Notes under the pieces: model-generated
The model's database searches: none
What the model was told of the DNA's origin: nothing
Seen by the model: only the letters and a program-made list of their open reading frames with translations
Assembly: GCA_964538865.1 (NCBI GenBank)
Contig: CAZIHU010000006.1
Location: forward strand, 26,059 to 66,058
DNA from: an uncultured Candidatus Peribacteria bacterium
GTDB taxonomy: Bacteria; Patescibacteriota; Gracilibacteria; UBA1369; UBA12470
Direction: 5' to 3'
DNA: 40,000 bases
Shown: piece by piece, positions 27,901 through 28,897 of the stretch
How positions within the stretch are numbered: the stretch's first letter is position 1
Layout of the letters: each line of letters starts with the position of its first letter
Program-made: the position numbers and the translations under genes

Positions 27901-28088
27901 ACCTTAAAAAAAGCTTAAAAAGTAGTGGCGAGTTTTGCGCTCCGTAGCGTTAAGAACGCGAGCTCCGCCGAGCGTTCTGAGAGCGAAGGGCAATTTTTAA
28001 GAAATCCCGAATCCCGACTTTGGAGTGGATGAGGAATTTCGTAAAAAATTGAGCAAAACCCCATTGCACAACACCCCGCACTCCACAT
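27901..28088. repeat. 188-bp perfect direct repeat, copy 1 (upstream of the RHS gene)
   Basis: ACCTTAAAAAAAGCTTAAAAAGTAGTGGCGAG...CCCCGCACTCCACAT is identical, by my base-by-base reading, to 28710..28897 (offset 809). It contains internal hairpins AGAACGC-12 nt-GCGTTCT (27953..27978) and CGCT-CCGT-AGCG (27938..27949). Confidence 0.9.
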
Positions 28089-28139
28089 TCCAAATCCGAC
28101 ATTCCAAATTCGAAATTCGACATTCGGCATTCCAAATTC
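28084..28139. repeat. Heptamer array, 8 units (CACATTC CAAATCC GACATTC CAAATTC GAAATTC GACATTC GGCATTC CAAATTC)
   Basis: Read directly. It begins inside the end of direct-repeat copy 1 and ends at the first base of the relE/parE stop codon (28139..28141). Confidence 0.9.
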
Positions 28140-28417
28140 TAACCCCTGTCTTCATACACTTCCCTCCTATGCGCAATCCTCAAAATCACCAGCACAACTA
28201 TCACACCATCCTTGCCAATCCGAAAAACAACCCGATAATCACCAATCCTGAATCTGTAAGTATCTTTAAATTCTCCCTTAAGTCTTTTTGCTTTAGACAA
28301 AGGATCCTTCAGGCTCAAAAAATAATCGATTTTCCTAACAATCCTATCCGCTACTTTTTTGGGTAATTTCCTGATGTCCCTTTGAGCAACAGGGTCATAC
28401 ATAACTCTATAGCCCAT
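28139..28417 (-). CDS. Type II toxin, RelE/ParE family
   Basis: The 92-aa protein carries the family-typical core ..LKGEFKDTYRFRIGDYRVVFRIGKDGVIVVLVILRIAHRREVY. The start is ATG, and it overlaps the upstream antitoxin gene by 11 nt. Confidence 0.85.
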   Translation of the reverse strand: MGYRVMYDPVAQRDIRKLPKKVADRIVRKIDYFLSLKDPLSKAKRLKGEFKDTYRFRIGDYRVVFRIGKDGVIVVLVILRIAHRREVYEDRG

Positions 28418-28637
28418 ATTCCTTTTTTAAATCCTCATGACTAATATATCCTTCCGCTCCATTCAAATAACGCTGCCACCCTTCCTCAACACTATCCATA
28501 AACTCTTTCTTGATAATAGGCTTAAAAGTAACCCCATCATCAGTAACCACAACCAAAAAATGATCCGTCCCTATCTCATCCCTCCATTTCTTAGGAAGAG
28601 TTACTTGTCCCCTGCTTGTACATTTCACAACTTTCAT
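28407..28637 (-). CDS. Type II antitoxin, AbrB/MazE (SpoVT-AbrB) fold
   Basis: MKVVKCTSRGQVTLPKKWRDEIG.. is a SpoVT/AbrB-type N-terminal DNA-binding motif. The ORF track starts at 28661 (MNYLFLQI..), but the ATG at 28637 gives the usual spacing of the RGQVT(L/I)PK motif from the N-terminus. Its position directly upstream of and overlapping the toxin gene fits a TA operon. Confidence 0.7.
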   Translation of the reverse strand: MKVVKCTSRGQVTLPKKWRDEIGTDHFLVVVTDDGVTFKPIIKKEFMDSVEEGWQRYLNGAEGYISHEDLKKEYGL

Positions 28638-28675
28638 GATTTGCAAAAATAAGTAATTCATACTTTCTTATTTAA

Positions 28676-28681
28676 ATTATA
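28676..28681 (-). promoter_or_regulatory. Candidate -10 box (TATAAT) of the TA operon
   Basis: The minus strand reads ggaatgatgTATAATttaaataag. It lies 38 nt upstream of ATG 28637, and the -35 is poor. Confidence 0.35.
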
Positions 28682-28709
28682 CATCATTCCAACCCGTAAT
28701 ACCACACCC

Positions 28710-28897
28710 ACCTTAAAAAAAGCTTAAAAAGTAGTGGCGAGTTTTGCGCTCCGTAGCGTTAAGAACGCGAGCTCCGCCGAGCGTTCTGAGAGCGAAGGGC
28801 AATTTTTAAGAAATCCCGAATCCCGACTTTGGAGTGGATGAGGAATTTCGTAAAAAATTGAGCAAAACCCCATTGCACAACACCCCGCACTCCACAT
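28710..28897. repeat. 188-bp perfect direct repeat, copy 2 (upstream of the TA operon)
   Basis: See copy 1. The sequences diverge immediately outside both ends (g/c before; t/c after ..CTCCACAT). Confidence 0.9.

Follow-up and report, generated by a model that had tools for sequence, protein, structure and literature searches.

Identical spacers on both sides of a toxin-antitoxin operon: probably an old promoter-upstream duplication recently made identical again

The 40-kb window analysed here (the whole stretch of DNA, 40,000 nucleotides) contains two identical 188-bp direct repeats, one on either side of a RelE/ParE-AbrB toxin-antitoxin (TA) operon. Considering that the layout is old and also present in a distant relative, the repeat is probably an ordinary duplicated promoter-upstream spacer that was recently made identical again, and not a freshly captured mobile cassette. 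More specifically, we favour, with modest confidence, the explanation that the two copies are paralogous promoter-upstream spacers in a layout ancestral in the Peregrinibacteria clade, and that these spacers were recently homogenised in the marine lineage. If true, this would be a clean natural example of promoter-upstream DNA whose two copies, flanking a TA operon, are kept identical by conversion, in a genome of the Candidate Phyla Radiation, where regulation and genome dynamics are almost unstudied. The locus reveals no new kind of system.

Architecture of the repeat-flanked locus

The features of the locus are listed below, where L029 is the groundwater Peregrinibacteria MAG RIFOXYA2_FULL_41_18. 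Promoter assignments are consensus matches, and the extended -10 boxes were picked by inspection.

21417..27851, minus strand: gene for an RHS/SpvB/TcdB-type giant protein, downstream of repeat copy 1 (Pfam RHS_repeat 4e-32, SpvB, TcdB_toxin_midN, H_lectin)
27887..27895, minus strand: RHS extended -10-like box TGCTATATC, 5 nt past the repeat and 44 nt ahead of the ATG
27901..27921, second copy 28710-28730, minus strand: T-rich bipartite motif TTTTTAAGCTTTTTTTAAGGT at the promoter-proximal repeat end; GCGATTTGCAAnnTTTTTGTAATGTC of L029 aligns with it; the window has just these two sites
27901..28088, minus strand: repeat copy 1, with the toxin stop/array B on one side and the RHS promoter on the other; the L029 motif aligns with its 3' 21 nt
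28089..28138, minus strand: heptamer array B, with GAATNNN units on the minus strand; runs from the toxin stop codon and fades out in the repeat
28139..28417, minus strand: RelE/ParE-superfamily toxin gene (PF05016, ParE_toxin, 1.5e-12; TIGR02385, RelE/StbE, 4.5e-8; PDB 2khe, 7.7e-14)
28407..28637, alternative upstream ATG 28661, minus strand: AbrB/MazE(SpoVT)-type antitoxin gene (PF04014, MazE_antitoxin, 5e-5; TIGR01439, 2.8e-6)
28647..28673, minus strand: palindrome AAATAAGAAAGTATGAATTACTTATTT, downstream of P2 and ahead of the antitoxin start; near-identical in L029
28676..28683, minus strand: P2, the putative TA-specific -10 box TGTATAAT, a consensus match that aligns with TGATATACT of L029
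28696..28704, minus strand: P1, an upstream -10-like box TGGTATTAC, 5 nt past repeat copy 2 and the counterpart of the RHS box
28710..28897, minus strand: repeat copy 2, 188/188 identical to 27901-28088; the peptidase 3' region/array A adjoins it on one side, the TA promoters on the other
28898..28955, minus strand: heptamer array A, preceding repeat copy 2 and in register with array B for about three units
28956..29053, minus strand: structured spacer S1, abutting the peptidase stop codon and conserved in L029
29054..30292, minus strand: Peptidase M16 gene (Pfam), upstream of the block; served as the query for relatives

A comparison of the window with itself confirmed the predicted pair of identical repeats around the TA genes, which agree at all 188 positions with an offset of 809 nt. 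The original prediction of immediate divergence beyond both ends holds only roughly: perfect identity does end abruptly, but a wider ungapped similarity of 222 nt (27890-28111 vs 28699-28920, 96%) overlaps the flanks. On the array side, 16 of the 21 following nucleotides are identical in register and similarity then fades, as had been described for the two arrays. On the promoter side 10 of 20 nt are identical, including a TGnTAT box at equal spacing. The repeats end 49 nt before the RHS start codon (ATG 27851) and 48 nt before the upstream antitoxin ATG (28661), close to the 50 nt first noted for both minus-strand genes. No third copy of the repeat was found in the 40-kb window.

The TA operon lies between the repeats, as predicted, with profile matches to both families and a -10 box at 28676-28683. 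Toxin scores exceed the curated cut-offs (PF05016, 48.3 bits against 23; TIGR02385, 33.5 bits against 27.9), whereas antitoxin scores fall slightly below them (PF04014, 23.6 bits against 24.7; TIGR01439, 27.0 bits against 28.3), and a sequence search of the PDB gave no match to the antitoxin. The antitoxin gene precedes the toxin gene with an 11-nt overlap, and 28637 is a likelier antitoxin start than 28661. Judged from its sequence and position, the palindrome at 28647-28673 is probably the TA operator; it is near-identical in L029 despite a protein identity of about 58%. The TA genes themselves are otherwise unremarkable, their nearest toxins being 55-61% identical. Among the toxins found elsewhere by protein database search, the nearest (55% identical) lies in an unrelated context without flanking repeats. 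The homologues P0123, P0124 and P0125 have unrelated neighbourhoods, with no flanking repeats at P0123, the one checked.

Other genes in the window have TGGTATAAT-type -10 boxes at -35 to -42, and the RHS box stands at -44. A generic sigma-70 scan found no promoter inside the repeat, although the same scan also missed the extended -10 boxes seen by inspection. The heptamer arrays extend beyond the TA locus: Tandem Repeats Finder (TRF) reported period-7 arrays at 28082-28139 and 28891-28955, which come after the respective repeat copies on the plus strand, and in four other spacers of the window. They are confined to intergenic DNA, begin at or near stop codons, and vary in copy number between samples. 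Such sample-variable arrays abutting stop codons are a separate curiosity that may merit a study of its own.

The layout is shared with a distant relative

L029 has the same gene order as the window (peptidase, antitoxin, toxin, RHS), with amino acid identities of 66%, 58%, 61% and 58%, respectively, and two further upstream homologues. A direct repeat in this genome, GCGATTTGCAAnnTTTTTGTAATGTC, stands before the TA operon and before the RHS gene and nowhere else in 9.9 kb; its two copies are about 79% identical over about 43 nt by a hand count of the alignment. When the two copies from each genome were aligned together, all four sequences showed the same colinear series: the terminal 21 nt of the repeat, then an N5 spacer, then the TGnTAT box. 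The original prediction of a recently captured cassette is contradicted by this relative, which has diverged repeats at the same two places although its proteins are only 58-66% identical. That prediction had itself named the same arrangement with diverged repeats in a related genome as evidence against a recent event, and L029 has this arrangement. Zero divergence had been taken to imply either a very recent event or ongoing conversion; of these, conversion survives.

Inside the repeat, the two copies within a genome are 100% (window) or 79% (L029) identical and copies from different genomes 55-62%, in a comparison based on one relative and short alignments. Since within-genome copies are more alike than between-genome copies, we read this as concerted evolution of an ancient arrangement. 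Outside the repeat the pattern is weaker and, if anything, reversed, with 64% identity between TA-side orthologues and 44-54% between paralogues. If each lineage had duplicated the spacer independently, the same pattern of within- and between-genome identity would result. The cross-genome similarity of 55-62% spans 29 T-rich nucleotides of the motif and is weak when taken alone. The rest of the 188 nt had no significant match to L029, and the repeat is weakly colinear with the L029 toxin-RHS spacer. Local alignment of S1 with L029 scored 38, compared to a shuffle mean of 20.7 (sd 3.6), and this score was reached by 1 of 300 shuffles. The L029 TA operator matches the RHS 5' region over 12 nt, which we set aside as too weak.

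Three relatives with a closer peptidase (70-78%) have no TA or RHS gene alongside, and downstream synteny is absent from the closest of them (L014, 78%). Block transfer or repeated loss must therefore be assumed under an ancestral layout.

Assembly, mobility and RNA as alternative explanations

Three independent metagenome contigs from different samples (L001, L002, L004) run through both copies and are 100% identical over the 1.9-kb locus. Other contigs break inside the repeat, end 55 nt into it or form a loop of 809+119 nt, as expected of a de Bruijn graph. An assembly artefact, in which the repeat was collapsed or duplicated or two slightly different copies were merged into one consensus, is thus conceivable in that 188 nt exceeds typical k-mers and reads, contigs break there, and an assembler may resolve such a loop by default. 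We consider it very improbable, because the three spanning contigs agree in sequence across both copies and have distinct flanks, the linear order is the simplest path through a graph with two entries, two exits and one loop, and the L029 assembly independently shows the same architecture. The 928-nt loop contigs (809+119) would fit a circle as well as the linear form, and this is one of the points that favour recent capture, by which an 809-bp unit of repeat plus TA pair would have entered by Campbell-type recombination with a copy of the element already present between the peptidase and RHS genes, from where it could be excised again as a circle. The arrangement of a TA pair between perfectly identical direct repeats also fits such an event, as does the GC content of the TA genes (36-40%, against 44-48% in the flanks). 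A deleted form would be marked by the junction array A-repeat-CGTTCTGCTATATC, and a circle or tandem amplification by array B-repeat-GGGTGTGG. No TA-less form was present among 17 toxin-bearing contigs and 7 contigs with the open reading frame (ORF) that covers array and repeat, and all contigs with the exact peptidase or this ORF either run on into the TA pair or stop before it. Together with the orthologous TA pair in the same gene order in a relative at about 60% protein identity, this makes recent capture unlikely. Also against it, no near-identical TA pair was found elsewhere (the best were the 61% L029 orthologue and the 55% toxin with unrelated neighbours), the searches gave no further copy of the element, and the precomputed Pfam hits of the listed neighbouring genes include no recombinase family. 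The locus cautions against taking perfect direct repeats around a TA operon for a sign of recent mobility.

We also doubt that the 188-nt unit is a small mobile element of the MITE or REP kind (dispersed or non-autonomous) with two insertions, each placed between an array of heptamers and a promoter. In favour of this, its identity ends abruptly at 27901/28710, the genome has other small intergenic repeats (e.g. a 31-mer at 9518 and 14531), and array-flanked structured spacers occur elsewhere (e.g. 7374-7471). Against this, its ends, ACCTTAAAAA... and ...CACTCCACAT, are not complementary and so form no terminal inverted repeats, no target-site duplication is common to the flanks of the two copies, and its promoter-proximal end aligns with the resident L029 motif. 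The repeated intergenic element of the original prediction found no support in that no copy beyond these two appeared in any sequence searched, including the other loci of the source population and 80 GTDB-species Patescibacteria loci. Outside the source population, blastn and nhmmer searches of the repeat core against all fetched loci gave only one 22-nt match at chance level, in L029 (E 0.04), while in phage and plasmid collections the heptamer part alone matched other heptamer arrays. An exact 24-mer of the central hairpin had 0 matches in each of the viral, genome and metagenome contig collections; the metagenome result is uninformative for this organism, since a 54-kb JGI contig known to have another window motif twice was missed, and that collection evidently lacks the source samples. 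Within this genome, copy searches covered the window and the other fetched loci of the source population. A spurious 76-aa ORF over array and repeat, used as a proxy for copies, was unique among 5.8 billion proteins, a weak test because copy 1 has the ORF in another frame and was itself missed. The 23-mer GAGCCCGCCTGCCGGCAGGCAGG, used as a query, retrieved 39 contigs that are unrelated and range from 37 to 72% GC, an unexplained observation. Equally improbable is a structured RNA encoded by the repeat (a cis-regulatory leader, 3'-UTR element or small RNA) and duplicated for that role, and the earlier suggestion of a structured 5' leader or non-coding RNA is not supported. A 59-nt imperfect hairpin at 27992-28050 (minus strand) does fold better than all of 200 shuffles (z -2.9), and the whole repeat reaches a z of about -2.2 on both strands, but this is the sole notable hairpin. 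The predicted hairpin at 27953-27978 is present with a 7-bp stem, yet its stability is unexceptional (z -0.6 and -1.2), and the remaining hairpins are no better than shuffles. Rfam 15, whose use had been proposed as a check, gave 0 matches in the window at the gathering score; at E<=10 over 27700-29100 the best was mir-3167, a eukaryotic miRNA model (E 2.2, 19.5 bits against a gathering score of 86). A scan for tRNA and tmRNA found none. The element has no homologues in the searches above, and most of it is not conserved in L029. Since the putative extended -10 boxes start 5 nt downstream of the repeat, it is promoter-upstream DNA and not a 5' leader transcribed from those promoters.

How the spacers may have become identical

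We return to the favoured explanation of duplicated spacers that were homogenised in place. The ancestral order would be peptidase - [repeat] - TA - [repeat] - RHS, with one spacer ahead of the RelE/AbrB TA operon and the other ahead of the neighbouring RHS gene. The adjacent spacers most likely became identical through ectopic gene conversion or repair copying from one to the other, with a conversion tract that may have started in the similar heptamer arrays and ended abruptly 5 nt before the -10 box. The weak colinear match to the L029 toxin-RHS spacer hints at the RHS-side copy as donor. The T-rich bipartite motif and the TGnTAT box would form a common upstream promoter or regulator-binding context for the TA operon (P1) and the RHS gene, with the TA operon presumably retaining its own P2 and palindromic operator outside the repeat. 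The rest of the repeat, with its decayed heptamers and 59-nt hairpin, may be spacer or 3'-end sequence of the preceding gene.

As originally predicted, the repeats should be able to recombine and delete the TA cassette, given that 188 bp of perfect homology suffices for RecA-type deletion. Cells that lose an active TA pair should be selected against, which would fit the absence of the deleted form.

The conserved linkage of TA and RHS and their common upstream motif also suggest a testable hypothesis of co-regulation. The repeat could be a shared operator or UP-type site through which the AbrB-type antitoxin or the TA complex controls the giant RHS/Tc-like surface protein, with gene conversion keeping the sites matched. 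A TA pair dedicated to RHS regulation would explain why TA and RHS are linked, with the repeat at both promoters, in two lineages with about 60% protein identity; we put this forward as a long shot.

Comparison with known systems

The TA pair resembles chromosomal type II operons of RelE/ParE toxins with AbrB/MazE(SpoVT) antitoxins in its antitoxin-first order, 11-nt overlap, protein lengths (76 and 92 aa) and family matches, and in having a -10 box of its own, with a palindrome lying between this promoter and the start codon. It differs in that its nearest toxins are merely 55-61% identical, and its toxicity is predicted from sequence.

Promoter-containing TA cassettes in sedentary chromosomal integrons penalise cassette excision (Richard et al. 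2024, PMC13108822). Like these attC/VCR-flanked cassettes, our locus has a promoter-bearing TA pair between same-strand direct repeats less than 4 kb apart, and in both, recombination between repeats would cause a TA loss that should be selected against. With attC sites and CALINs defined as in Cury et al. (2016, PMC4889954), the boxes RYYYAAC (R'') and GTTRRRY (R') are absent on either strand in or around both copies. Under DNA parameters the 188-nt unit forms several local hairpins with unpaired ends, and not a single end-to-end hairpin. The locus further differs from integron cassettes in having two identical copies instead of an array of similar sites, and in a repeat that ends at a promoter and partly aligns with the resident promoter DNA of a relative.

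Intergenic heptamer tandem repeats are known from the cyanobacterial STRR sequences and the TAACTGA repeats of Beggiatoaceae (MacGregor 2015, PMC4679880). The window arrays share with them the 7-nt units in intergenic DNA and the variable copy number, but differ in unit sequence (GAATNNN, ACCTAGT), in their host, a Patescibacteria lineage, and in starting at or near stop codons and not just upstream of start codons.

Our preferred reading has a parallel in the concerted evolution of duplicated bacterial intergenic or promoter regions. As there, within-genome copies are more alike inside a tract with a sharp boundary, and beyond this boundary the highest similarity is that of the TA-side orthologues; unlike the known examples, the case in the window is known from sequence comparison with a single relative over short alignments.

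Two identical repeats flank the TA genes

Comparing the window with itself at an offset of 809 nt, we found 188 identical bases in a row (27901-28088 and 28710-28897, copies 1 and 2), and the perfect direct repeats of the original prediction are thus real. A repeat finder reported 222 nt at 96% identity (27890-28111 versus 28699-28920). To the right of both copies on the plus strand, the heptamer arrays stay in register for about three units (16 of 21 bases identical) before similarity is gone, as had been described. The left flanks agree in 10 of their first 20 bases; about 0.9% of the window's 21-mers match that flank equally. 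Divergence outside both ends had been called immediate, which is only approximately right. BLAST with a word size of 7 revealed no third copy in the 40 kb and matched only the array part of the repeat to other arrays (~7100-7500 and 14574-14660).

All genes of the block lie on the minus strand, with the complete TA operon between the two copies, as originally predicted.

Features of the block, in gene orientation
29054-30292, minus: peptidase M16, first gene of the block
28956-29053, minus: S1, structured spacer of 98 nt directly after the peptidase stop codon
28891-28955, minus: array A, heptamer array before copy 2
28710-28897: copy 2 of the repeat
28696-28704: −10-like box TGGTATTAC, at the same spacing after copy 2 as the RHS box after copy 1
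28676-28683: −10-like box TGTATAAT, after the TGGTATTAC box
28647-28673: palindrome after the TGTATAAT box, nearly unchanged in the related locus L029
28407-28637 (alternative ATG 28661), minus: antitoxin, AbrB/MazE-like
28139-28417, minus: toxin, RelE/ParE
28082-28139, minus: array B, heptamer array ahead of copy 1, first unit at the toxin stop codon
27901-28088: copy 1 of the repeat
27887-27895: RHS −10 box TGCTATATC, at −44 and 5 nt downstream of copy 1
21417-27851, minus: RHS/SpvB/TcdB-type protein of 2144 aa, downstream of copy 1

Judged by Pfam, NCBIfam and PDB searches, the toxin is an ordinary member of the RelE/ParE family, and the AbrB/MazE-like antitoxin, which scored just under curated cut-offs, is probably an ordinary AbrB-type member. 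By its peptidase homologues the window belongs to Peregrinibacteria (Patescibacteria/CPR). Outside its own population the nearest peptidase is 78% identical, and GTDB species representatives reach at most 74%.

Contigs from several samples support the linear order

Among ENA and JGI assemblies of several samples, 17 contigs carry the toxin. Three of these, from different samples (72, 11 and 6 kb), span both copies and match the window at 100% over 27501-29400. Some end within the repeat, 55 nt into copy 1, and further ones are 928-nt loops (809 + 119), as expected of a repeat that exceeds the k-mer in length. None of the contigs carrying the exact peptidase or a spurious 76-aa ORF (array A plus repeat) continued directly into RHS. 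Of the paths through such an assembly graph, the linear order is the simplest; a circular by-product or another copy number would also be compatible with these contigs.

Variation was seen in neighbouring genes. In one contig spanning both copies (L004, 140-520 versus window 29920-30294), the first third of the peptidase gene has ~70% nucleotide identity to the window, and 115 of the 116 contig differences fall within 375 nt; outside that stretch, TA pair and both repeats included, the sequences are identical. Either the contig is chimeric or this stretch recombined with a related population. In the 72-kb contig a 64-nt deletion (window ~22366-22429) leaves the RHS gene as two ORFs of 1816 and 306 aa, and contig L005 has a 36-nt in-frame deletion in the peptidase (window 29392-29427). 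Both deletions are population variants.

A related locus has the same order and its own repeat

We searched the window proteins by tblastn against 80 loci fetched around peptidase homologues. The whole block was found in one, L029 (MFXH01000014.1, Ca. Peregrinibacteria RIFOXYA2_FULL_41_18), with homologues of two further window proteins (114 and 784 aa) upstream.

Homologues in L029, with amino acid identity to the window
6001-7242: peptidase, 66%
7539-7763: antitoxin, 58%
7756-8028: toxin, 61%
from ATG 8138: RHS, 58%

The same block order indicates that the TA genes already lay between peptidase and RHS before these lineages diverged. A direct repeat, GCGATTTGCAA-NN-TTTTTGTAATGTC, is found in L029 as well, before the TA operon (7442-7467) and before RHS (8068-8093) and nowhere else in 9.9 kb, each copy followed by a TGTWATA box. 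Its two copies are roughly 79% identical over about 43 nt, as counted from the alignment. A four-way alignment shows three features colinear in all four copies, with 21 invariant columns: the final 21 nt of the 188-nt repeat (TTTTTAAGCTTTTTTTAAGGT), a spacer of 5 nt and a TGnTAT box. The rest of the 188 nt had no significant match in L029. In the MAFFT alignment, two short repeat blocks (GGGATTCGGGATT and AATTGCCCTTCGCTCTC) fall opposite the spacer between toxin and RHS of L029, which hints weakly at the RHS-side copy being the older one.

The spacer after the peptidase stop codon (TCTCGCTAG..., with hairpins; window 28956-29053, L029 ~7290-7440) is recognisably conserved, though the proteins are 58-66% identical; it is a possible conserved 3' structure. 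A 26-nt direct repeat, CAGACAGCAGAGAAGAGGG.., lies on both sides of the L029 spacer.

Heptamer arrays and other intergenic features

Besides arrays A and B, tandem heptamer arrays occur in the window at 7086-7373, 7472-7500, 8163-8181, 9591-9629 and 14577-14660 (units GAATNNN, GAATCTC and ACCTAGT, all in intergenic DNA) and in locus L014 at 3723-3835 (CCTACTA-type units). Most, in the window and in relatives, start at or a few nt from the preceding gene's stop codon. Of 74 arrays of period 7, 14 or 21 in the window, L014 and the 80 GTDB loci anchored on the peptidase (most of them Patescibacteria), 18 are no more than 15 nt from the stop codon of a long ORF, versus 6% under random placement. 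We found no published description of stop-codon-adjacent heptamer arrays for Patescibacteria; the closest literature concerns TAACTGA/STRR repeats (PMC4679880).

Array length differs between samples. The spacer after the CYTH gene (window 7132-7287; L021, L022, L024, L025) measures 355, 404 or 453 nt by sample; these 49-nt steps are the higher-order period of the local array, so they reflect array copy-number polymorphism or assembly collapse. A 2.7-kb contig (L026, 1-1622 versus window 8946-7318) is 99% identical up to 7318, inside an array, beyond which it runs into another gene, coding for an ECF sigma factor; either the strain is rearranged at the array or the assembly is chimeric.

At 9518-9548 and 14531-14561, each time with a heptamer array nearby, the window carries identical copies of a 31-nt GC-rich palindromic element, CGCTCGAAGAGCCCGCCTGCCGGCAGGCAGG. 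Its 23-nt core recurs in 39 unrelated contigs from metagenomes (GC 37-72%), frequently within a gtcattctGAG...cgaagcgaagaatc context. Two adjoining giant genes (9627-13931 and 14661-21098; fn3 and TSP3 repeats) have common segments of 71-80% nucleotide identity and so are paralogues. Many intergenic hairpins (8068-8090, 8126-8146, 9565-9585, 31264-31282) close on GAA or a similar short loop (GTTTTGC-GAA-GCAAAAC, GTTTCTGC-GAA-GCAGAAAC) and probably act as terminators lacking clear U-tracts. One canonical terminator, at 6692-6724, stands after a plus-strand gene.

The repeat as a probable duplicated promoter-upstream segment

Extended −10 boxes of the TGGTATAAT type stand 35-42 nt ahead of the start codon in several window genes. 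Promoters were predicted from consensus matches and conservation, and the −10 box proposed at 28676 was recovered by consensus match. Since the boxes are downstream of the repeat, the repeat is upstream of the likely transcription starts; it also follows the arrays and the stop codons of the genes before it. On these predictions it is intergenic promoter-upstream DNA and not a 5' leader of these promoters. The proposal of a structured leader or ncRNA also found no backing in Rfam, where no family matched the repeat, or in fold energies, which are ~2 sd below shuffles on both strands; a 59-nt hairpin on the minus strand (27992-28050) is notable at z −2.9.

The original prediction further proposed recent capture of the TA cassette at a repeated element. 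No terminal inverted repeats or target duplication were found at the repeat. Neither the phage and plasmid collections nor the 80 GTDB-species Patescibacteria loci held a credible match, the one hit being a 22-nt, chance-level match in L029 (E 0.04). Scans of collections by 24-mer gave 0 matches; the metagenome collection does not contain these samples and is hence uninformative for this genome. Inside the repeat, identity is 100% within the window and 79% within L029, and 55-62% for all cross-genome pairs. Outside it, TA-side orthologues are highest (64%) and paralogues reach 44-54%. This is unlike a single recent capture, as is the same gene order with its own repeat in L029, and is the pattern expected if the upstream segment either evolved in concert or was duplicated anew, independently, in each lineage.

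As the comparison shows, the arrangement is old: one upstream segment is present in two copies, one belonging to the TA operon and the other to the RHS gene. The perfect identity here would stem from recent conversion or repair-copying between two spacers 0.8 kb apart, with one tract end probably within the heptamer arrays, which resemble each other, and a second, sharp one just before the −10 box. Functional constraint may rest on the T-rich bipartite motif, as an UP-like element or a regulator site; that the motif couples RHS expression to the TA regulator is improbable.

The TA pair could be lost by recombination between the copies; given what is established about TA addiction, segregants without it would be selected against (compare integron TA cassettes, PMC13108822). 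The locus resembles an attC-flanked integron TA cassette, which we rejected on the features defined in PMC4889954: neither attC R boxes nor an end-to-end hairpin were found in the repeat, and the resemblance is a likeness only. The repeat most resembles a duplicated promoter region under concerted evolution.
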